Part shown: piece after piece, positions 9,683 to 60,582 of the stretch
Numbering within the stretch: the stretch's first letter is position 1
Layout of the letters: every line of letters begins with the position of its first letter
Assembly: GCA_032718475.1 (NCBI GenBank)
Contig: JAUCBJ010006486.1
Span: forward strand, 1-61,153
DNA from: Nemertoderma westbladi
Lineage: Eukaryota; Animalia; Xenacoelomorpha
Direction of reading: 5' to 3'
Length of the DNA stretch: 61,153 nucleotides
Made by a program: the position numbers and the translations under genes
The notes under the pieces: model-generated
Seen by the model: only the letters and a program-made list of their open reading frames with translations
What the model was told of the DNA's origin: nothing
Databases searched by the model: none

Positions 9683-9691
9683 CTCCCCCCC
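9683..9691 (-). other. E1 polypurine tract (GGGGGGGAG, sense)
   Basis: Purine run abutting the 3' LTR start TGTTAG; identical in E2 (47594-47602). Confidence 0.9.
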
Positions 9692-11303: not shown

Positions 11304-13163
11304 CTATTGTCCTCCTGACACTTCACCAGACACTCCTCCGGAGTGTTGTCCCCCGGACACCCCGCCGTCCGCTCCGCTTCCGTCTCCATACCGATGCTTG
11401 CTGGGAAACCTACTCTCCTCTGCCCACTTTCTTACTGTCACCTCCCTATCTGGCTCTACTATCTCTCGTTTCTCCTCTACTTCCTCTGCGTCTTCGGTGC
11501 CTGGTATCATGCACCCAGATGTCTCTGTCACACTGCATGGGATGTTGGTTTTAACTGGGCCGCTAAGCGTCCATCCGAACGGCGTGAGGATCGCCGTCGG
11601 GTCCCGCTGCCTGTCTTCGCCGAAGACCGTCTTCCTTCTCTCATGGGCCGTCGGGCAGTCCATCCCTACTATAATGGACACCTTCCTAACGTCCACCTTT
11701 GGTATTGAGAAATCGATACCGTCCAGGAATCTATATTGTTTGACCTCAATGTTGGTTGGTCGCCTGGCGTTGATGTTTATCGATTCTATGACGTGGATGG
11801 GGTCGATCGTCGCCCCATAGTCATATCCCGGTGCAATCGCTGCTATCCTGCACCGCCCCGCCCTCGTTTCCAGGACCTCATCTTTACTCGAGACGGTAGT
11901 CACCGCCATTCTATTCGGCCTTGTCTTTAGCCCTATCTCTTCGGCCACCCAGTTCTCCACCAGCGTGAAGGCTGCTCCGCTGTCGACCAGCATTAACGTC
12001 GTTACTGATCGACCACCCTCTCCTGATATCTTTACTGGTACTACCCCGAGTAGTACTTTTCTCTTCTTCTCCTCTTCTGTCGTGCTTGTGGCCATTGCCT
12101 GGCCTCCAGTCTCGGACTCTCTAACTGCTGTTTCTCTACACTCTCCGGACCTGTGTCCTTCTACCACACATCGATGACATAGTCCGTTTGCGTCTGTGTA
12201 GGCTATACGATCTTGTTTGGGCAACGCTTGCCAGTGCTTACAACTCCTGGTCTTATGTGTTCCATCCCGATGTAATTGACATTCGAATCCTGGATTATAG
12301 CGTTCCCTGTATAGTCCCTCACGTATCGCGCCTAGGTTTATATGTACCGATTTAGTGTTTTGGTTGTCTGTATTCGGCCTACTGGGTATATTGGGATTAT
12401 GTTTATTTATGGTGTTATTTTCTTTCTGTCCCCGCCACGGTGTGGCCCTGCTACCAGCTAACTGTGGACTAGCAGTCCCCTGTGTGGCCGCATGTGGTAG
12501 TGATTGTCCTACTCTCGGGAGTGGATCTGCAGGATCGTGTTCGGGTTTATGGCTTGTCCCCAAACTATCCTCGCTATAGACTGGGTCTGTTATTAATTCG
12601 GCTTCATAGTTGAGGAAGCTCGACATTTCTTCTAGGCCCGGTTCCGCACCTTTCTTCTCACGTGTGGAGAAAGCGATTTTCCTCCACTTCCTTCGTAACC
12701 AGATCGGCAGTGCCTGCGCTATCGTGGTGATGTTGTTAGACGCGTTGAGTTCGTATGGTGCGTCTAGCGTCTTTAACACGATTAACGCCTTCTCGACCTT
12801 GTTTGCAAAGGTCCTTATGCTAACGGGATTGTCCTGTAGGCCATCCGATGTTATGCCTCTCAGGGTTTGCCGGATGATCTTGGCCGGGTGCCCGTATTCC
12901 CTATCTAGCGCCCGCCATGCTGTCGTGAAGCCGCCCTCGATGCCCTGGTATTGCCTCACGATGTCGTATGCTGGGCCTCCTGTATATACTTGCAGATATT
13001 TTAGGCACTCCGCCTGCGTCAAGTTCTTACTTAATATTTCGTTACTATACATGCGCCGAAACTGTAGATATTCTTCCGGCCTACTCCCATCGAATTTAAA
13101 TGGTTCCACAGGTGGTAACTCGATCCTAGTTTTTAACGCATCGATCAATGTGGCCATTCCCAT
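11304..13163 (-). CDS. BEL/Pao Gag core, zinc knuckles and aspartic protease (E1)
   Basis: DUF1759-like block (FKFDGS..EYLQF..LKYLQVYTGGPA..AWRALDREYG), knuckles CQLHRDGTHKTRSC and CHRCVVEGHRSGEC, protease LVDSGA, BEL motif AILTPFGWTLSGP. Confidence 0.9.
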   Translation of the reverse strand: MGMATLIDALKTRIELPPVEPFKFDGSRPEEYLQFRRMYSNEILSKNLTQAECLKYLQVYTGGPAYDIVRQYQGIEGGFTTAWRALDREYGHPAKIIRQTLRGITSDGLQDNPVSIRTFANKVEKALIVLKTLDAPYELNASNNITTIAQALPIWLRRKWRKIAFSTREKKGAEPGLEEMSSFLNYEAELITDPVYSEDSLGTSHKPEHDPADPLPRVGQSLPHAATQGTASPQLAGSRATPWRGQKENNTINKHNPNIPSRPNTDNQNTKSVHINLGAIREGLYRERYNPGFECQLHRDGTHKTRSCKHWQALPKQDRIAYTDANGLCHRCVVEGHRSGECRETAVRESETGGQAMATSTTEEEKKRKVLLGVVPVKISGEGGRSVTTLMLVDSGAAFTLVENWVAEEIGLKTRPNRMAVTTVSSKDEVLETRAGRCRIAAIAPGYDYGATIDPIHVIESININARRPTNIEVKQYRFLDGIDFSIPKVDVRKVSIIVGMDCPTAHERRKTVFGEDRQRDPTAILTPFGWTLSGPVKTNIPCSVTETSGCMIPGTEDAEEVEEKREIVEPDREVTVRKWAEESRFPSKHRYGDGSGADGGVSGGQHSGGVSGEVSGGQ

Positions 13164-13174
13164 CGCTTGCGCTT

Positions 13175-16024: not shown

Positions 16025-16086
16025 CTTCGTCTTCTGTGTTCTGTCTGTGTCTGGCAGTTACAGTTCGGCAGGCCTAGAGTTAAGAC

Positions 16087-16636
16087 TGTGACGGGATCCG
16101 AGAGGATCCCGGTTTATCCGGTGTTGTTTCGTACGCGTCCCCGCCGTGTGAATGAAAGAAAAGAGTTTGTCGTTCTTCCAGTGTTATTGATAATATGTAT
16201 ATGAGATAGACGGAGTAATGCAGTAATGATAGCACAGTATACCGGTAGTGATATGGTAGTATATATTGGTGACGGCGGTGATGGTCTTAACTGTCACCGT
16301 TCTGCCTGACTGTACTGAGATGACTGAATGAGTATTGCATCGACCGGTAATATATATTGCACGGGTTTGGCCGTTACAGTACTTAGTCGATGCTGTCCCC
16401 CCATTGGCTAATATCCCTGTTGGCACCCTTTGCCCCCCTCTGAAGTGCTTCCCTTCGCCCTTGCTGTTCTCTCTTGGTTAGGGGTTTGGCCCCTGACCCT
16501 CCATTGTGTGTTTCTCCTTCCCTTCCCACTTTATTGGGGTAACACGAGGTTGATATTGGTAATCAACCTCGTGCTCCCAATATTGCTTAATGGCTCACTC
16601 TATGGGTTTGTGTTAGCGGAATTGGATAAGCTAACA
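16087..16636 (-). repeat. E1 5' LTR (550 bp)
   Basis: Sense TGTTAG...GTCACA; gag ATG at 16024 follows a 62-nt leader. Confidence 0.97.
16323..16356 (-). promoter_or_regulatory. Putative E1 LTR core promoter (TATA-like plus Inr-like TCATTCAGT)
   Basis: TATATA (16351-16356) about 25 nt upstream of TCATTCAGT (16331-16323); same arrangement in the diverged E2 LTR. Confidence 0.55.
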
Positions 16637-35010: not shown

Positions 35011-35300
35011 GGTTGAAATGAATGGGGATTCTTTTAAACCAAGGCTTAAATTATTTGGGAGTCATTTTATATGGGATTCATTACAAACTAGTACCCAATC
35101 TTCGAAGGACATTCATTTCAACCCGAATGAATGAATCCCCAATCAAGTGTGTACGCGCTTTCAGACCTTTAGAAGTTTAACCTGCCAATTTTAGTTGTCC
35201 TCTTGTTTATAAATCGACTTTAACCTATAACAATTATTTGGTGCACATGAAGTTACATTAGCCGAAGCCAGTCTATGCGCGATCATTCACCCACTGTTAA

Positions 35301-36596
35301 CCCTTTTAGTACTGAATTGGAAAATATCTTGTACCTCCAGAACCTGAATATATTTTATGAAATTATAAAAATATTTCTTAAACTTCAACAAATGTCACAG
35401 GCTTGCTTCCTTTCAAAATAATCTATGTTTCCCCAATTATGAGGTTGTTTTTACCGTAGATTTCATTTCCGAAGTCTGTTTTTCTGTACAGCCTATCCTT
35501 CCTTATGTGTCTGTTGTCTGTCTGTCTGTCTGTCTGTCTGTCAAATAGAAAAATTGTGTTTCAACTGAAATCTGAATCTCCTTTTGGGTAATCAATGCCG
35601 TGGAATTCGAATCTAACAATAACTTATTCATTCGATTAGCCGTTCTTCTGATATTGTCTGTCTGTCTGTCATGTTATTATGTCTGTCTGTCAAAATATTA
35701 CTATCTAATCAGTTTGTTATTACGAATTATTAACAGGATGGCGATCTCTTTCAGGTCTGTCTGCCATGGCCACTGTTAGACTGTTAGACGTACAGTCACT
35801 CAATATAGGCCCTAATAATTAATATAATCAGATAATCGTATTATATAATATAATAAATAGTATATATCAGTATATTCCAAATGGCACAAGTAGGCTGCCG
35901 GTAATAGGCTACACTTAATTTCACTAGGCCTATTACAGTATATATTATGAGAATAAATTCTACCGTAATTCTAATTCACTACGCACTACGTACCGGTAAT
36001 AATAATAATAATAATTAATTGATATAGGCCTATACCGGTAATAAATAATTATTATAAATTTATATGATAATTATAGGCCTAATAAAAAACAGCATACGTC
36101 ATACACATAAGTGCAGCAGTGCCGTAAATTGATTCACAAATGACTGACTGAATATACAATTACTAACAAATGGATGGATGGAACGTAGTAGCTTTAGTCA
36201 CCTACAGGATAATATTATGATGTGTTATCCAATCACAAACGAGATAACAAACCACTCCAGGGTTTAGGGCACGGTACCCCGTAATGTATAATGGATAGTA
36301 GTCAACAATCTACCTACAACCAATTCGCCCTGCCTCAACAAAGGCAGCAAAGTTGGAAGTAAAAGGCCTAGATTTGAATCTCCATAGAAGGCAAGGTAAA
36401 CCCATTAGCCAATCAAATGGCTGCAAAAAAATTTCAAAAATTATTGTCCTAAGGCACTGAATAGTGAATTGGAACACTTTCTAAGGCGCTGTTGGGTGGT
36501 GGATGGCCTGCTTATCAAGTGAGATGCCATGGTACAACAGTTGGGACATAGCGCAGGTGGTTATGGTACAACAGGTGGGACATAGTACTAAAAGGG
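35301..36596. mobile_element. piggyBac-type non-autonomous element, 1296 bp
   Basis: 13-bp TIR CCCTTTTAGTACT, TTAA duplicated on both sides; empty site ACTGTTAAGGGAG in the 5' LTR near 59618. Confidence 0.96.
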
Positions 36597-36905
36597 TTAA
36601 GGGAGACTGGATTCGGGTGCTTTGAAAGTTATTGCGGTGCAGACCTACTGTATTATTCGATTGATCGTTACTATATAATTTCTGACAATATTATTCACTT
36701 TCGGGGAGATATTAACAGTTCCTTTAGGACGTGGCGCTTTAAGTATATAAAACAGAGTTATGACTTATACTAAACACAACGAGATGGCCACTGAGTTTCG
36801 TAAATAGCGCATTCTTTAGGAGATGCTTTATTATCTGTCACACTACTTCACACGTCTTCACACTACTTCACACTGATCTGCCGACCGTCACTGAATTTGA
36901 TCATA

Positions 36906-37750
36906 TGTGGCTGGCCACGAGAAAAGGGACCTTATGTCGCAAAACCTGATTCTGAGATAATCGCGTTTAAAGTTTCCCTCTATTTTTGAACAAATTTAAT
37001 TGGATTATCAATTTCGAAATGTATAAAACGATGAGGGAAATTCAAATTGGTTCTGATATTCAATATACCTAGGAAATAACTAATTACAGGAAGCAATATA
37101 AGATGCTGCAGTATTGTATATAACACGGTCTTAGGGTTTTCATGTCTGAATTTAGGACTGTAATAAATTGTAATTGTACTACTGTAATACAGTATGTAGG
37201 TACTGTTGGCCTACAGTTATTTTTTAAATGCAATATGGCTGTCATTTTCTTAATTTATCTTCGTTAGTTCTTAAATTTTGTAATCCCAATAAAGAATTCA
37301 AAATACAAATAATTTTAAAAAATTGAAAAATTAATCTTTTTTAAAAAATTTTAAATTAAAAAATTTTTTTTGCATACATGTTTTTTTGAAAATGTTGCAA
37401 AAATTTTTTTCAAATAGTTCATGAACAATATTAATAGTTTCAAAGTGTTAAAGTTGTATAAAAAGCCGAATAACATTGAGCTGCCTAATTATATAGTAAG
37501 AATTGCTATGATTTATTAATATTTTCCATTTTTTTTTAATAATCGCTTATTATACAGTAACCGCTATTAATAAAAATTTTTTTGCTACCCGATTCACCTT
37601 CACATAAATCGCTATAACTTTTTTTTAGAAATAGATATTGAGACACCGTTTTTTTTGTTAAAATCTCTGGAAAATTCTGCATCTCATAGGCCTAATAACT
37701 CAAAATCGACCTCCGGTGACATAAGGTCCCTTTTCTCGTGGCCAGCCACA
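36906..37750. mobile_element. Non-autonomous TIR element, 845 bp, TA target, superfamily unassigned
   Basis: 33-bp perfect TIR TGTGGCTGGCCACGAGAAAAGGGACCTTATGTC; empty site GATCATATATAAGG in the 5' LTR near 59920 implies a TA duplication. Confidence 0.95.
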
Positions 37751-38432
37751 TATATAAGGAGGATAGCAACTGACACATGTAGGGATTATGAAATAGCATC
37801 TAATTCACACAAAATCACTATAATGTAAGTCGCAATTGCTACAGGTAACCGGTCCCTCTTACCTTCAGTAATCAAGAAGATTGGGGGTTTTATGATTATT
37901 TATCGGTATTCTCCAAATATAACAACATATCCATCAATATACAACAATTAATAACAGACAGTAAACAGAAGTAAAATAGTGCGGTGAACAATCAATATAT
38001 GTTACTTATGCAAGTCAGTTCAGCAGTTTGGGTTGATAATAGATTTACGTTCTTGAAATCAAAGCCATCTAATGTTTTGGCCAAAGTCTGAAACTTCTAC
38101 AGAAGCACAGAAGAATTCTAAGCCGGTGTTCTGAGGCTCAGAAAAGGTAAACAAAGACCGTAATGCATTGCGCGGGTTTCCGTAGGCCCTTGTCCAACAT
38201 AAAATGAAAATCGCTCTGATTGGCTGAGCAGAACAAAGAGGTTCCACGTTTACAGAAAATCAGCTGACAGATTTCGTCATCTGAGCTCCAGTCTTTTAGA
38301 GTATTAGGCGCATTGCGGCAAAAATGACTTGTTATGTCCGCTAAAGCTTTTATACCACTCCCAGAAAATTGGATTTAATTCTATAAAATATAAAAAATCA
38401 CAGTTTCAAAAATATAAAAATACTCTAAACAG

Positions 38433-41194: not shown

Positions 41195-41732
41195 TGTTAG
41201 CTTATCCAATTCCGCTAACACAAACCCATAGAGTGGGCCATAAAGCAATATTGGGAGCACGAGGTTGATTACCAATCAACCTCGTGTCAGCCCAGTAAAC
41301 GGGGACAATAGGCCCCAAAGGAGACACACACAATAGAGGTCAGGGGCCAAACCCCTAACCGAGAGAGAACACAGGGAGTGAAGGGAAACACTCCAAAGGG
41401 TGCCAACAGGGATATCAACCAATCAGAGGGGGGAAAGGCATCGATTGAGTAGCAATAAGGCCACCGTGCAATATAACCAGTAACCTGTAATCATATCATT
41501 CAGTTTACTCAGTTAGTTCAGTAGGGTGGAACGGTGACTTCTATCACCGTCCGCTACCGCCATCATACTTATCTACCGGTAACTGTGCCATACTATACTA
41601 TAGCCTATATATCAACTATATTATACCTTATACATATAACCGAACATCAGAACTCTTTTACCTTTCACACACGGCGGGGACGCGTAGATAGAAAACCCAA
41701 CGGATAAACCGGGATCCGTAGATCCCGTCACA
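41195..41732 (+). repeat. E2 5' LTR (538 bp)
   Basis: TGTTAG...GTCACA; one substitution seen versus the 3' LTR. Confidence 0.97.
41472..41504 (+). promoter_or_regulatory. Putative E2 LTR core promoter (TATAA plus TCATTCAGT)
   Basis: TATAA 41472-41476 and Inr-like 41496-41504; positionally conserved with E1. Confidence 0.55.
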
Positions 41733-41896
41733 GTGACAGAACTAGTTCCACCCAGCTGCCCTGAAAGTGACAGAATCAGATCCGCCCAGCTGCCCTGACA
41801 GAGATAGAATCTTAGCAGCTGCCCTAACAGTCTGACAGTGATAGAACTGGATCCAACCAACTGACAGACTGTGGCTGCCAGACACCAAAGACGACG

Positions 41897-44800
41897 ATGA
41901 GTCAAGAGAGAGGAACGACACCGCCGCGGACCCCGGACGACGATCTAACGATCCGCGAGGCCACGGCGAGACGATACGAACCCACGACGCCGGTCGATGC
42001 TACGCCGACCACGTCGACGCAGGTTGACGCCACGTCGACAACGAGCAACCCGGCGAACCAAGATGTGGGGGGTCGTCTACAACCGGAGAGCGAGTCGAGG
42101 GAAGGAGACGAGAAGGGAGGAGAAGAGGAAGACGAGTCGACGCGGAGCGAGGGTCGACGTACCGATGTCGCCGGCCAGCCACAGGCCGAGGACGACGAAC
42201 AGTCCACCGGAACGGCGACGGTGGGGCCGTCGGTACGACGTCGGACCCGGAGAGATGGAGGAGAGGTCGGCGACGAGGACGTCGGGGTTTCTGATCGACT
42301 TCGACGGGCCTACCTCGCGACCCGGGAGCAACTGAGAGAGGCCAAAGGAGGGGCGAAGATAGACGAGGTGAGACTGACAAAAGGACTAGGTGAGTCGAAC
42401 AGATACTTTGATCACCTAGTGTGTTCTGGGCAGAGAGAACTAGCCGAGGAGAGAGCGAGGGGGGTTACCAACGAACTGATTGAACTATGGGAATGTGGGG
42501 GTATGGAACCTAGCGTAGTGTACGTAGGGCCATACTTAGTCGATGCCCGGGGAGTAAAATTAGTGGGTTGGAAGAGACCTGAGGAGGGCGAATCCGAGGT
42601 TAAACCCGAGGATTCGGTCTCGTCGGTTGGAGGAAGTTCCGGGAGGCGGGGGAAAGTTGATAGGACGGAGGGGCGGCGGGAGTCCGTCGCAACCGATAAG
42701 TCTGCTACATCCTCCGCGAAAGAAAGAAGGGTGCTGAAAATAAATCTGACGTATGAATTAGCGATGGTGGCGACAGAGCAGAATGAGTTAGAGAGACAAT
42801 TGAGAGAGGAAACCGCATGGTTGGAGAGAGAAAGAGAGTGGGCAAGGGAGGATAGAGAGAGAGTCAAGGAGTGTAGAGAGCGGGAGATGAGAGTAGGGGA
42901 CGAGCCGGCGACGTGGCTTGAGATGGTTGCGAGAGATACCGAGTTGGCCGAGCAAAGTTTACGAGAGTGCATAGAGAGAGAGATAGAGGCAGAGCGTGAG
43001 CGGGATGATTTGCGTGCCCAGCTAAGGGGGCTTGCGCAATATCAAGCCAAACTAGACCAGCGCCGACTAGAACTGGCGCGGTTGGAACTATCAGAGAGTG
43101 AGACCCCAGTTATAAGCACCGAGCGAGAAAACCAGAACTGGTGTAGCCGTACGGGCGGGGGGGGGTAGTAGTAATACGTTAGAAGTAGTTAATATTAATA
43201 GTACCGTAGTAGATAACCCTAATCCCTTTATTGCAGCAAATAATATTTTACCTGGTAGTAGTAATTTAAATTTAAATTCAAATAATAACATTAATTCAAA
43301 TAATTCGAATATTAATTTAAATTTTGAAAATAATAATTTAATTGATTTAACAAATAATATTGGGAATGGTGCTATTAATATGAGCGTGTCGGACGTACAT
43401 AACCCGGCAGACGGTGGCCTGGTAGGCCACGTAGTTAGTAGGCAGGAGGTGGCAGGGTTGAGCCAACCCGACGGCGGCCTGGTAGGCCACGTAGTTGGTA
43501 GGCAGGACGTAGCGGGGTTGAGCCAACCCGAAGTGGGCCTGATGGGCCACGCAGTAGTAGAGAGAGAGGCGGGGGTGAATAGACCCAGCCGTAGTAGAGA
43601 CAGTGCGTCGACTAGAGAGGGGTGTAGAGACGAAGTAAGAGATAGTGAAGTTAGATGTGGCGAATGGGGGGGGGGCTACCGGCGCCCCACCACATAAGAT
43701 TAGTGGTGAGAGAGAGGGGGCAGAGAATGCCCCACAAGAGGGGTATAGAAGTGTAGTAAGAAATAGTGAAGTTAGAAGTGGCGGGTGGGGGGGGGGGCTA
43801 CGGGCACCCCACCGCGAGAGATTAGTAGAGAGAGAGGGGGGGCAGAGAGTGTCCCACAGCCGTCAGCGGATAATGCGCGGGCCGAATCAGGTAAACCGCA
43901 ACACCCGGCGACGGAGAGTAATAGGGGGATTGCGAGTATCCCCAGCGGCGTGCGATCGAGTAGAGAGAGGCAGGTTGACGTCGCGAGAGGGCAGACGAAG
44001 CGTCGAGCCCGATCAGAAGAGGGAAGAAGAACAGTGGAGTTTAACCGGGAGGTCGACGAGAGATCTCACGAGCCGGAATACTACACAGAAAAGAGAAGAA
44101 GAGAACATAGTAGAAGAAGTGTCGCCACGAACGATAGCAGTGCGAGGACGGATAACGGACCGTCGACAGTAGAGATGGAGTCAGGGAGCCAGTGGGGTCG
44201 AACTTCGGGAGATTGCCGTCGCCCCGGAGAAACGCACCGCACGCCAAGAGAGGGGTACAGGAGGTACCAATACAAAGTCGAGAACAGGAGAGGGGATCGA
44301 AGAGAAGCTTCCCGACGGGATATAGCTGCCGATCGAGAGTGCAGTAGTCGCGGGGAGATTAGAGATTCGCGAAGAATAAACTTCGGTTCGGAAGGGCACA
44401 TGCAGACTGCAGGACATACTGTAGGCCTTACTGCACACACTATTATAGGCCATGCTGGGAGAGATAGAGTAGGCGATGGGGTAGCGTGAACGACAGGATT
44501 AAACCCGGAAGTCGCGGAGTACATACCGGTAGGTAGGCGAGAGGTAGGTAGGCCTATATCGGTACAGCAGCATGACTATAATACACAGGGACATAACATA
44601 TATCCAGGGGAGGGGGGAGTTATTGGAGATAGACGTATGGGCCCCAATGTATTAACATCAACCCCAGTACCAAACATACCGGCCGGGGGGGGGACAGGGT
44701 GACATTCCCCCATCACAATATCGACAATATACCCCGATAGGAGCAAGAACATCGAACTCCCTGGACGAGAGCAGGTCGTGCGGACAGTCAATACCACACG

Positions 44801-45200
44801 CGGCCGTACAGGGGACTGCTAGTCCACAGTTAGCTGGGAGCAGGGCCACACCGTGGCAGGGACAGAAAGAAAATAACACCAAAAATAAACACAATCCCAA
44901 TATACCCAGTAGGCCGAGTCTAGACAACCAAAACATTAAATCGGTACATATAAACCTAAGCGCGATACGTGAAGGACTATACAGGAAACGCTATAATCCA
45001 GGATTCCAATGTCAATTACATCGGGACGGAACCCATAAGACCAGGAGTTGCAAGTACTGGCAAGCGTTGCCCAAACGAGATCGTGTAGCCTACACAGACG
45101 CAAACGGACTATGTCATCGATGTGTGGTAAAAGGACACAGATCCTGAGAGTGTTGGAAAGGGAGAGGATGTGAAAGGACTAAACCAGGGGCAGAGAAGCC
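41897..45200 (+). pseudogene. E2 gag remnant (N-terminal region plus zinc knuckles; core domain and protease deleted)
   Basis: ORF 41897-43168 is homologous to E1 15128-16024; later stops and frameshifts at G runs; jumps near 44780 over the E1 gag core; knuckle codons at 45009-45170. Confidence 0.85.
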
Positions 45201-45574
45201 CATTAGCAAACATAAGGGAGTCGGGAAAGTAGGAGGAGGCGTGTTGCATACACACGCAGGACGGACACAGTGCGAGGGGGCATTGCACGGGCAGACACCG
45301 CGTATACCGAGGGACGAGCGGGGGTCGTCGAGGGCTCTAATGCCAGCGCACATACGAAGGGGGAGGCCAGCAAAGATGGCACCGAAGAGAGTGTGGCGAA
45401 GAGTTAGAGGATGTATAGGAGGGCAGCGGGAGAGTGCCTACTGGAAGAAGGGGCACCTGAGAGTTTTTAGTCGTCCAAAGTTTTGGACTGAGGGGGGTGG
45501 GAATGAGGGCGAGACGCCCTTCCCACGCACAAAATATAAAATAATTATTTAATTAAAAATAATTAAATAATAGA

Positions 45575-47180
45575 GTAGGTAGAAGTTAGGTAGTTAGTTA
45601 GTTAGTTAGTTAGTAGGTACGTAGTACCTAGTTAGAGAGTTAGTAGGTACGTAGTACCTAGTTAGAGAGTCAGTTAGAGGGTACGTAAGTACCGTTAGTT
45701 AGTTAGTTAGTTAGTAGGAGGGTACGTGTAGTACCGTTAGTTAGAAGAGTTAGTAGGAGGGTACGTGTAGTACCGTTAGTAGAAGAGTTAGTAGGAGGGT
45801 ACGTGTAGTACCGTTAGTAGAAGAGTTAGTAGGAGGGTACGTGTAGTACCGTTAGTAGAAGAGTTAGTAGGAGGGTACGTGTAGTATCGTTAGTAGAAGA
45901 GTTAGTAGGAGGGTACGTGTAGTACCGTTAGTAGAAGAGTTAGTAGGAGGGTAAATGTAGTACCGTTAGTAGAAGAGTTAGTAGGAGGGTACGTGTAGTA
46001 CCGTTAGTAGAAGAGTTAGTAGGAGGGTACGTGTAGTACCATTAGTAGAAGAGAGTTAGAGGGTACGTAAGTACCGCAGAGGGTACGTAAGTACCGCTAG
46101 GTAGTTAGAGTTAGAGGGTACGTAAGTACAGCTAGTTAGAGTAAGAGTTAGAGGGTACGTAGTACCGTTAGAGAGTAGGAGTTAAGGGGTACGTAGTACC
46201 GTTAGAGAGTTAGTAAGAGTAAGAGGGTACGTTGTACCGCTAGCTAGTAGAGAGAGCTAGAGTAGTAAGAGGGTACGTAGTACCGCTAGTTAGGGGTGTT
46301 AGTAGTAGCAGTAGAGGGTTGTGGGCACCGTAAGTGCCACGTAGTTAGAGTTAGTAGGGAATGCGCTGAACTTAGTGGGGCACGGGCGTGATGATGTGTT
46401 TGATGTAAGAGCAGGGTATGTTAATTAGAGTTAGTGGGAGTTAGAGGTTAGTAAGAGGGTACGTAGTACCGGTTGTGGTTGTGGGCACCGTTAGCGCCAC
46501 GTAGATAGAGGTAGAGTTAGTAAGAGGGTACGTAGTACCGGTTGTGGTTGTGGGCACCGTTAGCGCCACGTAGAGAGTTAGTAGAGTTAGTTAGAGTTAG
46601 TAGTAGTTCACATAATAACGTACCCACTCTGCCGGCACTCAGAGCGTCACGTGTAGGCGATGAGACGTAAAGGGGATGTAGAGGAGTAGAGACGGGCACA
46701 TAGGGTGCCAGAGAGTAGAAGAGTAGAGACGGGCACATAGGGTGCCAGGTAGTAAGTTAGAGAGGTAGTAGTATAGTAGAGAGGGCACATAGGGTGCCAG
46801 GTAGTAGAGTAGAGCAGAGGGGGCACATAGGGTGCCAGGTAGTAGAGCTAGAGAGGTAGTTAAGTAGTAGAAGGGCACATAGGGTGCCAGATAGTAGAGT
46901 GGTTGTGGGCACCGCAAGCGCCACGTAGTTAGAAGAGTGGAGTAGAGTTAGTAGAGCTAGTTAGTAGAGTTAGCAGAGCTAGTGGAGTAGAGTTAGTAGA
47001 GCTAGTTAGCGGAGTTGGTAGACTCGGAGGAGTCAAGTAGAGCTAGTAGAAGTAGAAAGTTAGTAGGAGTTAGTTAGACTTAGTAGAGAGTTAGAGTCAG
47101 TAGAAAGTTAGAGGCTCTCAGTTAGAGCTAGAAGTAGTAAGAGTTAGTAGTTAGCAGAGTTAGTTAGATAGTTAGAGTTA
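45575..47180. repeat. E2 3' UTR C-poor tandem and low-complexity repeats (38-bp unit and others)
   Basis: GAGGGTACGTGTAGTACCGTTAGTAGAAGAGTTAGTAG repeated at about 45718-46050; GGGCACATAGGGTGCCAG about 5 times; GTTA-type filler. Confidence 0.92.
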
Positions 47181-47602
47181 GTAAGCAGTAGGTAGATAGT
47201 ATGATAGCACAGGGGTAGCATTAGAGATTAAAGCCTTAGGGAGTGACAGAGAGTAGAGAGTAATAGTGCGGAGTGCGAAGAGAGCGTGGGCGCAATTCAA
47301 GTGTGGGGGAGGAGAAATGAGAGGAAGAGTGTGGGACGAAGAGGTCCGGGGGTATGCGAGAGTTGGAGTAGAATGGTGAGAGTGTTGGGGAAACAAAAAT
47401 TGTGTGAGAGAAGCGCACGATCGGCCCGACACGAGACGCCAGAGGGTAGTGACATCATACCCATAGGGAGCGGCCTGGAAAGCCGACTCCGGAAAAAAAA
47501 TAGACCCACCCCACACCCGATAATAAGATCGGGATCCAGCGGAATTGTAGCGCACTTGAGTTGGATGCTATCTTCTCACCGGGAAGATAGCATGGGGGGG
47601 AG

Positions 47603-48140
47603 TGTTAGCTTATCCAATTCCGCTAACACAAACCCATAGAGTGGGCCATAAAGCAATATTGGGAGCACGAGGTTGATTACCAATCAACCTCGTGTCAGCC
47701 CAGTAAACGGGGACAATAGGCCCCAAAGGAGACACACACAATAGAGGTCAGGGGCCAAACCCCTAACCGAGAGAGAACACAGGGAGTGAAGGGAAACACT
47801 CCAAAGGGTGCCAACAGGGATATCAACCAATCAGAGGGGGAAAAGGCATCGATTGAGTAGCAATAAGGCCACCGTGCAATATAACCAGTAACCTGTAATC
47901 ATATCATTCAGTTTACTCAGTTAGTTCAGTAGGGTGGAACGGTGACTTCTATCACCGTCCGCTACCGCCATCATACTTATCTACCGGTAACTGTGCCATA
48001 CTATACTATAGCCTATATATCAACTATATTATACCTTATACATATAACCGAACATCAGAACTCTTTTACCTTTCACACACGGCGGGGACGCGTAGATAGA
48101 AAACCCAACGGATAAACCGGGATCCGTAGATCCCGTCACA
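47603..48140 (+). repeat. E2 3' LTR (538 bp)
   Basis: Direct repeat of 41195-41732. Confidence 0.97.
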
Positions 48141-49492: not shown

Positions 49493-51338
49493 TTACGTTG
49501 GGGAGTCCCTAGATGTTTGTTGGATTAGGGAAGTGGTCGTGGGAAGAGTATCTTGCCTTCCATAGTTTCTGGATAGTTCTCTGTCTCTTTCCAGTAAACA
49601 TAAACGACCAACTGGGAGATTGAATTGCTGTGTTTCGAATACAATTCCAGGTTTCTTAAAGTTACGTCGCATGACGACGAGTTCTACCGATTGCACTAAA
49701 CCATCAATGGATATATGAGTCTCGATGATACGACCTGTCTGCCATCGCTTACGTGGAAGATCTGATTCCACAATAAGGACCATGTCTCCGGAGACGTCTG
49801 ACGTTTTCTTGCTGCGCAAACCACTTGGTTCGAAGTTGTAGCGTAGGCAGATAATGTTTTTCGAAATGGTCAGCGAAACGATGAGACAATAACTGCATAA
49901 GTTGCCAAGTTTGTCGGCAGTATTCGTCTCCGTCCGTGATTTCCGATTGTGGGAGCATGGCTACAGGTTTCTTCAGTAGGAAATGCGCGGGTGTTAGCGC
50001 TTCTAGGGAGTCGGGACTCGATGAGACTGGCATAAGCGGTCTCTCGTTAAGATAGGCGGCGATTTCTTCCATTAACGTCCGCAAAAGTTCGTCGGTGAGA
50101 TACACGCGGCACGGCACTATAAAGTGAAATGCGTTCTTCACGCTCCTTATTAATCTCTCCCAACTTCCTCCCCGCCAAGGGGCGTCGGCGGCGTTGAAGG
50201 TCCAGCTAGATGCTGTTACCCTTAGCTGATCGTCCACCTGTCTTTGGTTCCAATCTTTAACGTAAGCTTTGATCTCATTATTGGCGCCAATGAAGTTCGT
50301 TCCCTTATCAGATCTCATCGTGTTGCTAGTTCCAAAGCGAGCGATCTGTTGGTGTAAACTCAGTATGAAGCTGTTGGTAGATAGATCGTTCACCATATCT
50401 AGATGGATCGCTCTACAAGTCATACAGACAAAGATGACACACCATCGCTTGACTATAGTCCTAGCACGATATACTTCAATAGGGCCAAATAAATCCACAC
50501 CAGTATTAGTAAAGGGTGGTTCATAGAAGCTTACTCGTTCCCTAGGTAGTTCTGCCTCTCGCTGTGTTAAAGGCCTACTGAATGCTTTCCTACAGAGTAT
50601 ACAGTTCCTAAGAACTTGGTTCAGAGCTCTACGGGGTTTATGAAAATAATAGCGAGTTCGAATTTCGCTAAGAACTCGTTCTCTACCAGCATGGTAAAGC
50701 CTACTGTGAACATCTACAATCATCTTGATTTGTATTTCAAGATTTCTAATGAGTATGGGAAACTTAGTGTCAAAGGACAATGGAGCATTGGTTAATCTCC
50801 CTCCAACACGTATTAACCCATCTATCATTGTGCTAGAGAAACGATCCCTTAAGCACGTCTGTGGATTTCTCAACAACAGGAAATACTTATCGGAATCTTC
50901 ATGGCATTGCAAGAGTCTCAGTATCTGCTTATTGGTTTCTTCATGCTCTTGATAACTGATCTTCTCCTTCAGAAACCTATCCGACACTTTGTATTTGGGA
51001 AGATCTTTAATAACACGGACCTGCTCGGATGTCAGTGGAGCGGTATCACTAGTGATCTTCGTCCTGGAGTAGTGATGATGGAAGCATCGCTTCAAATACA
51101 CGACGGCCTTACAAAGCCGATTCCAGGAGCTATAGTGATTTATCGCTCTTTGCAGGAGAGGTGAGAGTCCCTGCGAGACGTCTGGTGTTCCAGATTTCCA
51201 GTCTCTTTCTCTGATTTCCACAACAGATTTATTTGTGGTGGGGGAGTTTAGATCCACAGCGTCGTCCCCGGAAATGTGTAGTACAGACAGATCTATCACG
51301 GGTTTAAATAACGAACGTATAAATAATGAGGAGGCCAT
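49493..51338 (-). pseudogene. pol: E3 pol: integrase and C-terminal domain (frameshifted at both ends)
   Basis: HHCC (HSRLYH..CILC), DDE core (GVDLFGP, SDKGTNF, GSWERLIR), LTPAHFL, and C-terminal PRKRWQTGRI..DGLVQSV in ORF 49493-49819. Confidence 0.95.
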
Positions 51339-52366
51339 TCATCCTCTTCTTTACTTAGGAAGTCGGGTCCACCTAACCAGTCTGGAGTATCTATCAGTTC
51401 TTGAGGAGTTGCTCCTCTGGAGGCGATGTCGGCTGGATTAATCGTCCCAGGGCAATGTCTCCATTGATCTACATTAGAGCGACTAAGTATAATGGCTACT
51501 CTGTTGGTAACGAAGACGCTGAACTGACAGACTTCATTGGTTATATACTCCAAAACGAGTAAAGCATCAGTCCAATAGACAGTTTTCTCCAGTGGATAGT
51601 CGATCTGTTCTGTTACATTCCGGCCGATGGCTGTAGCGTATAGAGCCGCTTTTAACTCCGCTCGAGGAACTCGTAGTTTGTTGTTTATCAAGGCCTTAGA
51701 GGTAACCAAGGCAACTTTGATTCCATCCGGAGTTTCAACCCTCAGGTAGGCTACTATACCTATTCCCATATCGCTGGCGTCTCCAAACACATGGAGTTGA
51801 TAGGAATACGTGGGGAGAACGTCACCAAAATATGAACGGGAAATCATAAAGTTCTCGATGGATGGTAGAGAATCTTCCCATTTAGTCCATTTCTTTAGTA
51901 GTTCTCCCTTAAGTGGATCATCCCACGAGTGGTTTTCAAGCCACATTTGTTGCACTAAGCTCCGAGCAACCAATATAACTGGGCTAATAAATCCCAATGG
52001 ATCGAAATAAGTGCTCAGGATACTTAGACAAATCTGTTTAGTTCTAACTGGATTATCTCGCTGTTTTAACTGGAAAAACAGGATATCTCTCTCCGTGTCC
52101 CATTTCAAACCAAGCGTCTTGGTTTCCGGAAGATCGTCCTTGATAAGGTCCAGATCTTTAACACCTCGGTCTTCTACCGGGATCGATTCCAGAAACTCAC
52201 GGGAGTTACTAGTGAATTTGGTTAGTCGAAATCCACCGCGTCGTAAACACTCTACCGTTCCCTTGGCAACATCAATGGCTTCTTCCACCAATGGGAGGAA
52301 CTTTAAATTGTCGTCCATGTATATATCCCGTTTGATGTTGTTGATAACCGCTTTAGAGAAGGCGTC
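51296..52366 (-). pseudogene. pol: E3 pol: RT C-terminal half and Pao-type RNase H
   Basis: YMDD at about 52310-52321, GGFRLTKF, LGLKWD, FDPLGFISP, HVFGDAS, PRAELKAA, WTDA, NPADIASRG; in frame with the upstream ORF across a premature TGA at 52367-52369. Confidence 0.95.
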
Positions 52367-54703
52367 TCAGTTGTCATAAGCAGTGGTACGCACTACTGAA
52401 CAAGCGTTCGAGGGGCTCGAGATGATCCCGAAAGCCTGGATGGTCATCCAGTACTCCACCGGTTTTTGGTTGAGGTCTCCTTCAGGCCACCACAGAAATC
52501 GTAGGCTGTCTCGATCCCTATCCAGCGCCTTGACTTGTAAGAACATGCCTTCTATATCCGAAGCGAAAGCGATAGAATATTGCCGTAATCTTAATAGTAT
52601 TCCCAACAAGGATTGGAGTAAGTTGGGTCCCGGCAACAATTCGGAGTTCAGGGATTGGCCCATGTAAAGGGCGGAGCCGTCGAACACTACCCGGACTTCG
52701 TTGGGTTTACCGGGTTTGGGAACGTAATGATGTGTTAGATAATACGTTCTCTCTGTGATGGGTGTTTCTTCCGGTACTCGCTCCGCGTATCCCTTATCGA
52801 TGAATTTCTTCAGCTGGGTCTTATACATTTCTTTAGCTGAAGCATTTGCCGTAAGATGCCGATGTAGTTGCACGATTCTCTGCTTGGCTCTTTCTTCCTC
52901 GACGGACAGGGCCTTGTCGTAAGAATTAGGCTCTACTGCTTCTTGAGTGAAGAATCGTACGGCGTGTTCATCGCGAATCTTATTGTTGTATCGATCTATC
53001 ACCTCGTTTAATTCGTCGATGTAGTCGGATTGTCCGCCATGATTGATGAGATGGCACAGGTTTACTTGGTTTCGCCAAGTCTCATTTTCGGTGAGGAGGT
53101 CTATTGTATTTTCCTCGTCGAATAATTGGCTAATGTCGTCATTATCTGAGGAGTATGGTGTTCCCTCAGTTGTGGTTTCTCCCTCACTGATTTCTTCTTC
53201 CCATTCACTCACCTGATGTATCTTTTCATTAGGTAGTCTTTCCATGAGTGTTCTACGGGAAGGTCCAGTGAAGTACCAACCTACTCTCGTTCTTCCCGCA
53301 TATGTTTGTAATGGTTGCGGTCGAGCAGGCCGTTTTTCTAATGTCTCAAGCGCCTCATGCGCATTTTGGCCGATCAATATCTGTACCCCTGCGTAGTCGG
53401 TGTTGAATCTAGGGATATCATGCTGCTGGGTAAAATGATCTTCATCCCAGTTATAAGGTTCCACTTGGCTGGTAGCAAAGTTCTTTATCGCCACCATTTT
53501 TACTGACCTTATGCTATGTTCTCCTAGTTCATCCTGGGGAGTGGACAACGCGCCTACATAATAATCTGTAGCTACTGTGGATTTCCAAACCTGCATAATT
53601 CCTGAAAGGTTCAACTTAGTTCGGAACTTGGGTTGTCCAGCAAAGATGTCTTCGGCTAGTTCTTTGTCGATGAATGTACCTGTGCTGCCGGAGTCAAGGA
53701 GGGCGTTTACTATAAAACTCTTACCTAACTCGTGGACTCTCAGCTGCACTACTGGGAATTCCCGAATTCCAACGTTGGAAGTTAGTGCTTTCCAAGATGG
53801 TTGTCGGTCCGGAATAGTCAGTTGCGCTTCGTTATCGGTTTCAGTCTCATACGTAAGCGCTCGATACACTGCGGTGTTTATCATATAACAGGATTCGTTT
53901 TCGTCGGAGAATTCGTCCGTGTAGAATCCTTCCATCTCAGAGCTGTGGTCAGTGTCGTTCACATCACTGAATTGGACATGTAGTTCGGACTCACTTACCT
54001 GACTCGTGCGGGTTCTTTCAAATTCTGTGTGCAGCAAGATATGATGTATCGCGCCGCACTTAGCACACCTCGCGTTGGAGTAACAGGTCCGCCGTTGGTG
54101 TCCTTGTCTGAGACAATTATAACACAACCGCTTATCCCACATGACATCACGTCTATCCTTTAGGGATTTCTTCAAGAATTCATCACATCCACTCAAACGA
54201 TGGGGCCCGTCGCACAATGCACATTTGGGTTTGATGTTACTTACTTTACCCTGTGTGGTGTTGTGCACACTTGTTCTTTCCTCGGGCTTTCTTCCATGCA
54301 TTATCTTAGGAGACGTGGGAGGAGTTGTTGTTACCTGTTCTCTCCTGTCACTGGTTCGGGACTTAGATTTACTTACGTCTTTGCGGATTTTGTTAACATA
54401 GTAAGATCTTTCGGTGTCTTTCCCGCTGTTCTCCTCGTGGGAGGTCTGGCTTTCGCCGTCGTCTGTATAACACACTAGTGTTACCTTTCTCCTAGAAATG
54501 GGTTTTTCACTCACCTTGTTTTCCGTTGTCTTCTCTCGGGACTGCTTTAGGAGCTGTAATCTTACCTCTACATTTAAGAATGACATGAGATCAGCCATGG
54601 TAGGGTCTCTTTGTTGCTGGTCCATCATATGGAGAACTCTTTTGTCCCAACGAGTACCTACTCCACCCTTTGGCAAAGTAGATGCTACGGCTCCAACAAC
54701 CAT
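52367..54703 (-). pseudogene. E3 gag zinc knuckles, protease and RT N-terminal half
   Basis: BEL triple knuckle (CALCDGPHRLSGC, CYNCLRQGHQRRTC, CAKCGAIHHILLH), LLDSGS, RVVFDGSA, GPNLL, SDIEGMFLQV. Confidence 0.95.
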
Positions 54704-57430
54704 GGAACTCTGATATTCATGAGACTTACCTAACCAATCTAGTTGTCTACAGATCTCCTGAATCTCATCGGAAAACTCTATAATCCCGCTGCTAAGAAAC
54801 TTTCGGGGGCTACTAATTTCGCATACAAATACCTAGCTATGTTAGTCCTATTACCATACCTGATGTTTAGTGTATCCCAAACTTGTCTTAATCCATCTGG
54901 ATGTCCAATAAACTTTAACGCCATCAACTTGGGAGGTCCTTCCAAACACTCGATGAGGAATCTAAGTTTCTCTCCGTTAGGTAGTACAGAGTTCTGTATG
55001 TTATCTTTATAATATTCATTAAAAGGTAACCATTTCATCTCATCTCCATTGAAATTGACTATCTCTCCCACCTTTACCGCTTGACGGGCTTCGGTTCTAG
55101 CCATTTGACGCGTAAAACTTTCTTGGGCCATCGTATTATTTAATATTGAGTTATTGGTATATAAATTTCTCGGATTATGATCAGGTCTATATGGAATATC
55201 ATTATCAACAGGTTTATAATTACCCTTAATAGGGTTTACTATAGGAGTTTCTACTTCACTAGCAGTATAGATGCGTGTAGGCTCCACACCTTGCGCATGA
55301 AATACTTCAGACCTAACAGGTTGACACATTGTTACAGGGGGTGGTGGTATACCCTTTTGTATATTTACTAATTTGTCACGTTCTAACGCGATACTCTGCT
55401 GCACTTCTTGCAACTCTAACCTACCCTCTCTTACTGTTCCCTTTAACTGCTGAACAGTCCCTTCCAACTCTCGGACCTGTTGGGAGGAACGTATTCGATG
55501 TTCCTCCAGCTGCCCGAGCACGAGATCCATCCCCCGCCGTCCCTCATCCACCCACTCTACCACCGAAGTGGGAGCCGCCAACATGGTAGCGGGTAGACGA
55601 GGGATGACGGGCGACAAATCGTTGATGTCTTGCTCGGCGTCCAGGACCGGGATTGATTCAGGGGCTGCTCTACTGGGCACAGGTAGTTTAGTACTGTACA
55701 AAGGGAATTTAGAGTTAGGTTCTGGAAGTACAGGAGTCTCTATCACAGAGGGAGTGGCTTCGAGAACAGGCCTAATTATTTCAGGCTCATCTACTATAGT
55801 AGGGAGTCTTTCTACTCTAATAATTTGGTCTGTAGGCTCAGGATTACTTAAATCTACACTAGCTAGTTGCCTTCTCACAGCTGGGGGCAAATTAGGCAAT
55901 TTCTGCCGGTGTAGCGCCCTTCTATGTCCGCTGGAACGAGATTTATTTCCTCTACCTTCAGGATCTGTTGTATCGCCTTCATCAGAGGATGTAAATCCCT
56001 GTCTCTTGGGAGTAGATCGACTTATCATCTGCATCTGAGTAGCTGTTCTCTGTTTATTTAAGTAGTCTTGCTTCACTTGAAGATTTTCCAACTCTAGTTG
56101 GGCTGTCTCTTCAGATGCCCTCTGTTCTGCTTCTACTACTGCCTCTGCCGCTTTTCTTTCAACTTCTGCCGCTGCTGCTGTCGCTTTTCTTTCAGCTTCT
56201 ACCGCTGCCGCTGCCACTTTTCTTTCAGCTTCTGCCGCTGCTGCTGCCGCTGCCTTTCTGTCTTCTATCTGTTCTTTTCTTTAGCTGCTCTTCTTGGACC
56301 CTAGCGATGAGAATGCTTTCATCAAATTTAGCCTGCTCCGCGGCTAACATTTCCGCATCTAATGAGTCTAACACAAATTTGGCTCCCTCACTATTAGGGT
56401 GAAGTCCAGCTAGCCGTCTCCTTAACTCTTTGTCACCTATAAATCGTTGATAGTCCGACAGATATATGTCAATAGCGTCCTTCTTCTGAGGTTTCTCTCA
56501 TGTAACTTCGCTTTCCACCTGAGAAAAGGTAGCGTCTGTTGATTCTCCGTGGGTCATGCGCTCGGTTAGCTGAGCTTTCCATTGTGTCGTTCCCTGGACT
56601 TTAAGACTCACCCGTTGGAACCAAGTTTTTACGGCCACTTGCAATGACGTGTCTTGGCTTCTCTTCGAAGCTTCTTCAAAGGCCGAAAGGATTAGTCTGA
56701 TCCGTAAGATTCGTTCTCGAACTTGATAAAGCAGCTCTCCCTGCTCTCGAGGTCCTTGTCTTTGTTGGAATAGGTGTTCTTCTAGTCGCTCTAAAGAACT
56801 GAAGAATCCCTGGACATATCCTGCTGCTGACCTCTTCCACACAGCTGGATCTCGAGTGTCTCTTAATACTCCCATCCTGTATAAGTCCTCCCAGGCAGCT
56901 TCCGATAAGTTAAACGGAAGTCCGGGTCCGGGGAAGTTCCATTGCGTCTTGACAATAGACTTCAGTTCCTCCATCGTGTATCCCGCATAACTGTCCTTAG
57001 TCGATCGCTTACCTCTCGCCCAATCAATTTGATGTTCTTCCACAGCGATCAACACTCTAGTGAGTACAGCTCCGGGAAGAATTAGAAGGGGATCTGGATA
57101 AACCGCTTCTGTCATCCTTGCTCCAATCTCGGGTATCAACTCTACAGTGTCTGAACTACTGGAGTTATCAGGCCGTTGAGAAATAAGTTCTCGGTTCCGG
57201 TGCTGCTGCTGTTTAACAGCTGCCTCTTGGTCCCGCTTGACTTGGGCCCTAGTGCATATAATAGACCTGTGCTTTACTAGCCTAGGGTCTGATATTACTA
57301 CTGTAGGGATGACCTTTCTTACAGTAGGAGGGGACTTGGACTTCGGTCTCAGATTTTCTATGCTCCTATCTGAGTCACAGACTGTTCTTTCTAGGAGACT
57401 ATCTGACAGTGTTTGTTTTGTGTCAGCCAT
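54704..57430 (-). pseudogene. gag: E3 gag N-terminal region and core (interrupted)
   Basis: ORF 54778-56217 has a DUF1759-like block (FNGDEMKWLPF..LIECLEGP..WDTLNIRYG) and AAAEAERK repeats; ORF 56498-57430 lies upstream on the same strand. Confidence 0.8.
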
Positions 57431-57566
57431 GATTTATATTGCAGTTGAATGCCTACTACTATAACGACAGTTAAAGTAAGTCTAGTAATTCAGTATCAAC
57501 TGTAAGCCAAGTAATTACTACCGATACCGTTACTCAGCGTAACGTGATATATATATAATATATTAA

Positions 57567-57914: not shown

Positions 57915-59432
57915 TTCGAATACTGGTAATGTCAATTATTATATAATAACTGTATTTCTGAATTTTTAGGGTTACTTCCCTTTACTTATTACTGTTATTA
58001 AGCAGTAGTTCAACTGATATTAAGACCTAATGGATGTATAACAGGCCTAATATTTTATAAATCGGTTTAAGTTGATTTATAATATATTATGTACCCATAC
58101 AAGGGGTTTGACAATATTTGAAATAAATGTTATTATTTCTGGATAAGGAGTCACTACACAAAAGATGTTCGCTCTCAGTGAAGTGCTACTTGTTGCACAC
58201 TAAAACGAATAATTCTACTTTACTAAGTTACTTATCACTACAAATTACTTACAATTACGGTTTGAGATTACAATCTCTAAATAAACACCAAAAGTTACAC
58301 ATACAAATTTTAGGGTAATTTTACAAGAAATCTACTAACCAGTCTAACAAGGAGTTAGAATTTCTGGTTCTTACAAACGGACAGGATACTATGGTATTTG
58401 AAAATAATAAAGCAGTAGTAAGTAAATTGCGTTGTCCAGATAAGAAAATACCACCGTCTGACGACTTATAGTCTTAGCTCTATAAGTACTACGTTATGTA
58501 CCCGGAGTGTCCTTACCTAGAAGTTAATTACCGCAGCCAACCAGAGCTAATGTCCCTATTAACCACTTTACAACACAAATATACTACCTACACACTAATT
58601 ACTTTCGGAAAGCACTGTACTCTAAACCCTAAATTAGGTACAAATACTTATACAACAAATAACCAGCAGTTAAATATACTTGAACAGCCAAAAGAACCAC
58701 GGTATCTGCTGGAGTGACTGGAGCACAAAATCACCATTCTTTACCTACGCCAAGCAGCCCTGATGTAGTACCGGGGTTAATTTAACTATAATGGTATGTA
58801 TAACAAGCACAATTACTGTAGGAATAAACTTGGGGGTTGGTGGTTGCGAATACTCGCATAGACTCTGAATAATAAATATTACGCTACCCGTGCAGACTAT
58901 ACAAACAAAATACAGACCAAATGCTGGCAGACTACTGGCAAGCCTAAATAAACTACAGTATATGCAGACTCCGAAATGGTTAGTTAGTAGGCATTCTAAC
59001 CGAGTAGTACAACTTATTCTTTCAGGGGGATTTACCTTACAACACTGGATGCCCCCACCTTCCTAACTAGCACTTTATCGGACATACACTCTACATACAC
59101 TGCAATCGCTTCAGACCTAACAACAGCCAGACAACAATCCAGCCTACAAATTATTTGTACAATTTGAGCAGGCTTACACGCCGTCTGCTCAATATTACAC
59201 TTACAGATAAATAAAACTGACAGAAACAAGTAAAATCCCAATAAAAAACCAGGGTGGCCGTCCCTGATTAAATATCAAGACCTACTGGTATATAATTATC
59301 AAAATCGAGTAATACTGCTGTACCTGTAAGTAACGGTTCGGGTAGTTGGGCAGTGAGGCCTACAGCTTACCGTTCGACCAGTACCTTCGACTGTATTGCC
59401 TACGGTGCAATAAAAAAACTAAAATCTATTAT

Positions 59433-60582
59433 TGTTCGCGCTTTCAGACCTTTAGCAGTTTAACCTGCCAATTTTAGTTGTCCTCTTGTTTATAAATCGA
59501 CTTTAGCCTATAACAATTATTGAAGTGCAACATGAAGTAACATGTACATGTAACATGTAACTGTAACATGAACTTACATTAGCTGAAGCCAGTCTATGCG
59601 CGATCATTTACCCACTGTTAAGGGAGACTGGATTCGGGTGCTTTGAAAGTTATTGCGGTGCAGACCTACTGTATTATTCGATTGATCGTTACTATATAAT
59701 TTCTGACAATATTATTCACTTTCGGGGAGATATTAACAGTTCCTTTAGGACGTGGCGCTTTAAGTATATAAAACAGAGTTATGACTTATACTAAACACAA
59801 TGAGATGGCCACTGAGTTTCGTAAATAGCGCATTCTTTAGGAGATGCTTTATTATCTGTCACACTACTTCACACGACTTCACACTACTTCACACTGATCT
59901 GCCGACCGTCACTGAATTTGATCATATATAAGGAGGATAGCAACTGACACATGTAGGGATTATGAAATAGCATTTAATTCACACAAAATCACTATAATGT
60001 AAGTCGCAATTGCTACAGGTAACCGGTCCCTCTTACCTTCAGTAATCGAGAAGATTGGAGGTTTTATGATTATTTATCGGTATTCTCCAAATATAACAAC
60101 ATACATATCCATCAATATACAACAATTAATAACAGACAGTAAACAGAAATAAAATAGTGCGGTGAACAATCAATATATGTTACTTATGCAAGTAAGTTCA
60201 GCAGTTTGGGTTGATAATAGATTTACGTTCTTGTAATCAAAGCCATCTAATGTTTTGGCCAAAGTCTGAAACTTCTACAGAAGCACAGAAGAATTCTAAG
60301 CCGGTGTTCTGAGGCTCAGAAAAGGTAAACAAAGACCGTAATGCATTGCGCGGGTTTCCGTAGGCCCTTGTCCATCATAAAATGAAAATCGCTCTGATTG
60401 GCTGAGCAGAACAAAGAGGTTCCACGTTTACAGAAAATCAGCTGACAGATTTCGTCATCTGAGCTCCAGTCTTTTAGAGTATTAGGCGCATTGCGGCAAA
60501 AATGACTTGTTATGTCCGCTAAAGCACCTACACGGTACATTGCGGGGAAAAATGACTTGTTATGTCCGCAAAAGCTTTTACA
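59433..60582 (-). repeat. E3 5' LTR (1150 bp)
   Basis: Sense TGTAAA...CGAACA; short TAACATG expansion near 59530-59580 and a duplication of about 50 bp near 60490-60575 that are absent from the 3' LTR. Confidence 0.95.

Follow-up and report, generated by a model that had tools for sequence, protein, structure and literature searches.

Self-priming is known in other superfamilies of LTR retrotransposons and, as far as we searched, is new to BEL/Pao. In Tf1 the RNA's initial 11 bases pair with the primer-binding site (PBS) and RNase H cleaves between bases 11 and 12, as described in passages of PMC7175516; the mechanism of Tf1 and Tf2 is also treated in passages of PMC5341516. Self-priming has been predicted in the Tcn1 chromoviruses and in the TAR (Houba/Osr-1) lineage of Ty1/copia, using the rule that a complement to the LTR of at least 10 bp begins 0-5 nt past the LTR (passages of PMC6317226). 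The search described in those passages covered the LTR DNA itself, without a splice junction. BEL/Pao elements are generally described as tRNA-primed, just as the initial annotation of the DNA studied here had stated. The ICTV profile of the Belpaoviridae gives an 18-nt PBS for tRNA-Arg or tRNA-Gly, a genome of 4.2-10 kb and LTRs of 0.2-1.2 kb, and calls BEL/Pao replication poorly understood (PMC8742986). Three BEL/Pao surveys make no mention of PBS or tRNA in their main text (PMC3118150, PMC554778, PMC6238403), and BEL self-priming does not appear in the passages seen of PMC5443660, PMC8220671, PMC13524379 and PMC3601003 (the self-priming passage of the last is not among them). The initial annotation knew of no report of BEL/Pao self-priming, and across titles, abstract openings and opened passages we likewise found no report of it or of a splice-made primer; subscription journals, Repbase Reports and supplements lay outside this scope.

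Here we analyse a stretch of 61,153 nucleotides from Nemertoderma westbladi (contig JAUCBJ010006486.1), which we call the window. Self-BLAST with tandem repeats masked finds three LTR elements in it, E1, E2 and E3 (Table 1). E3 resembles Tf1 and Tf2 of Schizosaccharomyces pombe in having an 11-nt, LTR-derived complement right after the LTR and no tRNA site. However, Tf1 and Tf2 belong to Ty3/gypsy (Tf1/sushi group) and E3 to BEL/Pao. The Tf1 primer consists of the RNA's first 11 nt, whereas the candidate in E3 lies 781 nt from the LTR end and is predicted from sequence. Unlike Tf1, the relatives of E3 would need splicing to form a primer. The rule used for Tcn1 and TAR also picks out E3, which has 11 bp at offset 0, but those are plant and fungal lineages of other superfamilies.

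Table 1. Coordinates of the elements and of the features bearing on priming in the window
Feature	Position	Strand	Evidence or remark
E1, gag/protease-only element	9133..16636	-	550-nt LTRs, perfect 5-nt target-site duplication (TSD)
E2, E1 relative nested in E3	41195..48140	+	perfect 5-nt TSD
E3 3' LTR	35150..38354	-	interrupted by two DNA-transposon-like insertions, ~36905-37750 and 35301-36595, with terminal inverted repeats
3' LTR copy of candidate primer segment, identical	38036..38046	-	sequence
E3 polypurine tract (PPT) GGGAGTGG	38355..38362	-	sequence
E3 gag-pol	49493..57433	-	several broken frames; DUF1759 Gag, CCHC knuckle, protease, RT, RNase H (Peptidase_A17), integrase, DUF5641
E3 leader	between 5' LTR and gag-pol	-	2 kb
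E3 primer-binding position, 11 nt, no TGG	59422..59432	-	sequence
E3 5' LTR	59433..60582	-	1150 nt, TG..CA, ~58-nt duplication at LTR start; contig depth steps at both ends
Stretch after last acceptor-like site, 75 nt from LTR end; pairs leader +7..+15, two G.U	59492..59507	-	rival primer site or U5-leader stem
Intron-like stretch GTAAGT..TATAG, 70 nt, length varies among copies	59508..59577	-	deletion joints 59521 to 59566-59576 in aligned contigs
Predicted Inr-like (59947), TATA-like (59930) and AATAAA (59853) motifs	59848..59947	-	motif scan; all downstream of candidate primer segment
Predicted 5'-splice-site-like GTAAGA; joined to 59507 gives best junction pairing	60031..60036	-	sequence
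Candidate 3' end of the self-primer: LTR segment that is the exact complement of the primer-binding position	60214..60224	-	shuffle test and duplex energy
Predicted 5'-splice-site-like GTAAAT, beginning 2 nt before candidate primer segment	60221..60226	-	sequence
6-nt extension pairing with leader +14..+19 beyond 2x2 loop	60227..60232	-	duplex prediction

We decided membership in BEL/Pao (Belpaoviridae) on the relationship of pol, and treated the tRNA PBS and genome size as descriptive traits. The minus strand of E3 carries CCHC, LLDSG, RT (ASDIEGMF, YMDD), RNase H and integrase motifs in the order PR-RT-RH-IN, the catalytic labels being those we take these motifs to have. Pfam finds Peptidase_A17 (E 1.6e-36), DUF1759, Integrase_H2C2 and DUF5641 in E3, and PF05380 is listed for 79 of 80 homologs of E3; we take Peptidase_A17, DUF1759 and DUF5641 to be BEL/Pao markers. 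The assignment made in the initial annotation holds, since domain order, Pao-type Pfam families, TG..CA LTRs, PPT and a short TSD (4/5) all agree. Pfam finds no chromodomain in E3 and Pao-type domains instead, which places it outside the Tf1/sushi chromovirus lineage of Ty3/gypsy. In domain content and order, LTR length and PPT, E3 is like the Belpaoviridae of the profile. It is unlike them in having no tRNA PBS and in its length of ~16.3 kb once nested insertions are subtracted, which exceeds their genome range. The 18-nt tRNA-Arg/Gly site was not found in E3, and a TGG-type site is missing also in 27 of the 30 relatives scored below.

[quoted passage not shown] Across this position the depth of contigs from DNA runs aligned to the window falls from ~900,000 to 3,000. 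At the other end the LTR starts at 60582, with single-copy depth in the aligned contigs from 60583 outward. In three DNA runs of one organism, contigs cover the E3 LTR at hundreds to thousands of times the depth of the flank. The E3 family is clearly repetitive, with summed contig depth giving no copy number. The 3' LTR begins with TA, unlike the 5' LTR, and the target-site duplication agrees at 4 of 5 positions. Between the two LTRs the last 189 nt hold 8 differences plus gaps and the remaining 914 nt hold 9; the 3' tip may thus derive from another copy.

The rest of the window has several features of its own. The insertion at 35301-36595 in the 3' LTR is flanked on each side by TTAA, has inverted ends of 13 nt and is piggyBac-like, and the LTR piece beyond it diverges more from the 5' LTR than the remainder does. 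The one at 36905-37750 is non-coding, has 36-nt inverted ends and lies within an AT-run. The long 3' region of E3 contains the nested E2 and, on the minus strand at 38433-40830, three frames of 179-332 aa without a Pfam match, possibly an extra gene that would partly account for the ~16 kb of the element. A 67-bp satellite (17355-29191, ~177 copies, and 32911-35008, ~31 copies, 97-98% match) stops ~140 nt short of the 3' end of E3. A 29-bp tandem array at 6412-8715 (79 copies) is open in three minus-strand frames; its Pfam matches were rejected as repeat artefacts, no stretch passing.

Turning to the primer itself, on the plus strand 59422-59432 reads AAATCTATTAT, and 60214-60224 and 38036-38046 read ATAATAGATTT. 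We confirm the exact 11-nt complement between the first stretch and the other two that the initial annotation reported, as well as its start at the first base past the LTR (11 bp, no contiguous extension) and the absence of TGG, which first occurs at +53. When the 1150-nt LTR is shuffled with its dinucleotides kept, 2 of 2000 shuffles reach a run of 11. Unrelated starts at the following 180 positions of the leader give runs of at most 9, and when 32 other leaders are set against the E3 LTR none reaches 11 (maximum 9). With its extension, the duplex has an energy of -14.4 kcal/mol and is the best unspliced one for a 22-nt leader (2/300 shuffled leaders). For a 35-nt leader it is second in the LTR, and the best energy there is matched by 19 of 60 shuffles, which is not significant. 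The global fold of LTR plus leader is ordinary (z -0.39), and the helix is missing from its minimum free energy structure. In two DNA runs, no alternative letter has a share of at least 28% in either 11-mer among the rows listed, where about one would be expected in 22 positions and the PBS lies near the edge of the aligned region. Similarity among E3 copies in the aligned contigs breaks at 60212/60213, directly after the candidate segment.

It could be argued that the AT-rich 11-mer matches the LTR by chance, or that it survives in a decaying copy from an inverted duplication made long ago. Nine of its 11 pairs are A-U, the pol of E3 is broken, and its start letters and distance differ from those of its clade. 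We nevertheless give this very little credence given the rarity of such a run in composition-keeping shuffles, its start exactly at +1, and a clade-wide prior of 24 positives among the 27 related families without a TGG site.

That prior comes from a survey of related families. For the query, 21 of the 80 homologs of E3 were aligned with its RT-C/RNase H piece. Of 469 confirmed metagenome loci the best 80 were taken and gave 57 families, of which 30 could be scored; in the other 27 (including L019, L054, L055, L062, L070 and L075) the contig was short or had no LTR end or leader. The score is the longest Watson-Crick run starting 0-5 nt past the LTR, measured against the LTR either unspliced or across a predicted GT-AG joint. 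A second LTR fixed the LTR end in 10 families (class A) and in 20 it was picked by eye (class B); the LTR end of L009 is uncertain. The donor pattern was widened after the loci had been inspected, and the complement was visible when class-B ends were chosen, which leaves the 10 class-A families as the only near-blind ones. A separate pattern scan of contigs gave 7 prokaryotic matches limited to 18-22 nt, which we took as chance and dropped.

The family comparison proposed in the initial annotation came out in favour of self-complementarity. A self-complement of 10-15 nt is present in 24 of the 30 families (8 of 10 in class A, 16 of 20 in class B), whereas leaders set against the LTR of another family reach at least 10 nt in only 13 of 1056 pairs. 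Three families have a TGG-type site and score 4-6, and three have neither. These three misses are L059, whose LTR end is uncertain, L016, with 193 nt of its LTR covered, and L040. L040 has a 10-nt match by eye (180-220) that requires a 37-nt intron, below the 50-nt minimum, and was counted as a miss; this suggests that its host may have very short introns. In all 24 positives the paired site begins with GT and pairing starts 0-5 nt past the LTR end. The run is exactly 11 in 12 of them (L051 has a perfect 12) and the offset is 0 in 20, which makes 11 bp at offset 0, the form seen in E3, the commonest. Except in L003, where it is contiguous, the complement forms only over a predicted splice junction within the LTR (23 of the 24). 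From the downstream exon 4-10 nt take part in the pairing, and the acceptor is 66-168 nt short of the LTR end, the distance for L021 being measured to the end of the available sequence. E3 departs from this pattern: its match is contiguous, starts with AT instead of GT and sits 781 nt away from the LTR end, where theirs sits less than 200 nt away. E3, E1 and L003 show that the contiguous form coexists with the predicted splice type.

A tree was among the checks that the initial annotation had called for. In a quick tree of 71 rows, E3 falls within a group of 55 rows that holds all the self-type families (SH-aLRT 89), L040 being labelled self-type there although scored as a miss. This group is mostly aquatic and includes one TGG family, L025; the other side of the split holds insect-labelled proteins and two TGG families. 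The TGG-type site of L025 (2611-2635) follows a 5-nt spacer, and its neighbour in the tree is the self-type L021. With L025 inside the self-type group, more than one switch in the mode of priming may have occurred. E3 has a long branch in the quick tree and no close relative, and no relative of it was found in the viral contigs scanned.

Since E3 and most of its relatives have a self-match and no tRNA site, the group likely starts copying with its own RNA. At the level of the clade, we regard tRNA-independent self-priming in BEL/Pao as a well supported prediction. This part of the original inference stands with 24 of 30 families behind it. The part concerning E3 is less secure, because its 11-mer is off the clade pattern and 23 of the 24 positives need a splice junction that the initial annotation did not mention. 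We lean towards the view that in the relatives, a large aquatic BEL/Pao branch, the host spliceosome builds the RT primer. A fragment from within a tRNA (a half-molecule) might instead prime E3, its LTR match being incidental, and such priming exists in some Ty1/copia lineages (passages of PMC6317226). This is most improbable, as a different fragment would be needed for each of ~25 unrelated leaders, each of which also matches its own LTR.

E1 and E2 were said to have the same geometry as E3 with unrelated sequences, and this is only partly borne out. In E1 the leader at 16078-16086 pairs with the LTR at 16284-16292 over 9 bp, inside a longer interrupted duplex, and 4 of 2000 shuffles reach such a run. 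At the boundary of E2 there is no perfect run, the best being 5 (966/2000 shuffles); by eye, 41733-41741 in the leader pairs at 8 of 9 positions with 41539-41547 in the LTR, at a site homologous to that of E1. A second helix in E2, from 41745-41753, is perfect over 9 bp. The paired site of both elements starts with GT, and both stay below the 10 bp of the published rule (9 bp in E1). Each has an interrupted duplex of ~-31 kcal/mol between the presumed R region and the leader, made of differing letters (2/60 shuffles for E1 and 0/60 for E2). However, their LTRs are 74% identical, so the window holds two independent lineages, not the three on which the original argument drew. A splice-like extension of the E1 match was dropped since it would require a non-GT-AG joint. 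E1 encodes Gag and protease, and neither element has pol homology; they would be copied in trans by an element such as E3. The E2 leader repeats the primer-position unit several times (41733-41860), the first copy being off by one base and a later one a perfect 9-nt complement. GC-rich hairpins end the LTRs of E1 and E2 before the primer position (16087-16110; 41710-41732), and neither AATAAA nor ATTAAA was found downstream of the paired segment in either element.

In E1 and E2 the pairing extends well past the primer position, which is one argument that it is structural or regulatory, with a role in translation, splicing or packaging, and that priming relies on something else, such as a separate small RNA from the LTR that acts in trans or some host RNA. 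Sequence by itself cannot demonstrate priming, and fungal GalEa elements have a conserved non-tRNA hairpin at the same position (passages of PMC5445492). The partner of that site is downstream and conserved in sequence, and in those passages its authors found no LTR complement, whereas the partner in E3 is its own LTR. We find this reading improbable. The pairing keeps to the 0-5 nt past the LTR end that a primer requires in all 24 positives, it is missing in the three families with a TGG site, and one host RNA cannot fit all families because their leaders differ.

The splice junctions of the relatives suggest another reading of E3. A donor at 60036 or 60226 would be joined to the acceptor at 59507, the junction would pair with the leader from +7 onward, and the 11-mer would be the start of an intron, a decoy or remnant. 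Besides the junction that nearly all positive relatives require, several observations fit. The acceptor-like 59507, 75 nt from the LTR end, lies in their range, the six best junctions in E3 all use it, and joining 60036 to it gives 13 contiguous pairs at offset 6 (15/300 shuffles). The last ~75 nt of the LTR are the deep, shared part in the aligned contigs and the stretch before them varies in length. A second organism (three contigs, agreement 0.7, no cover at 60106-60306) keeps four leader letters, then diverges, with GT at +7. On the other hand, significance is modest in this shuffle test and in a second one (9/300), 4 of the 13 pairs are G.U, and the best Watson-Crick junction run is 6 versus 10-15 in the relatives, none of which (0/24 in each case) has an offset of 6 or a GA start. 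A perfect spliced complement was sought in E3, E1 and E2 and not found, and E3 has no perfect run of at least 10 nt across a GT-AG joint at a site starting with GT. The perfect 11-mer, a 1-in-1000 match, would also be unexplained unless it had a second role. We therefore hold a spliced primer in E3 to be doubtful. If primers are spliced, strong-stop DNA would never cross the LTR introns, which would be recopied from the unspliced 3' LTR and so survive. Splicing is more efficient for cap-proximal introns than for a donor that closes a multi-kb exon. It is also conceivable, though unlikely, that a spliceosome-built primer is combined with a switch in E3, in which the unspliced start of the LTR intron would cover the primer site and splicing would swap in the priming junction.

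By one route or the other, LTR segment or junction, E3 probably primes itself. That the primer is specifically the LTR segment at 60214-60224, paired to the 11 nt after the 5' LTR, seems to us evenly poised between right and wrong, and it is the reading we prefer. Transcription would start upstream of 60224, the unspliced RNA would fold back so that the segment pairs with +1..+11, and RT/RNase H would cut the segment at its 3' end to yield the primer, by analogy with Tf1. With the cut at that end, DNA synthesis would begin precisely where the LTR ends. A strong-stop product no longer than 781 nt would then transfer via R sequence located between position 60213 and a putative poly(A) site close to 59853. 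Counting against this primer are its AT start, its 781-nt distance, the TATA- and Inr-like motifs downstream, which could place the transcript start downstream of the segment, and its overlap with a donor-like site (60226), at position 3 of which it starts. Downstream of the segment there is also an intron-like stretch, which splicing would remove from the LTR.

Across the clade the pattern is strong; for the broken E3 copy the LTR segment is a candidate primer. Because a splice junction and a cleavage base follow from each leader, RNA data can test the idea directly. If it is true, self-priming arose in a third superfamily of LTR elements and dominates a large branch of BEL/Pao, and these elements would escape both control by tRNA fragments and annotation based on the PBS.
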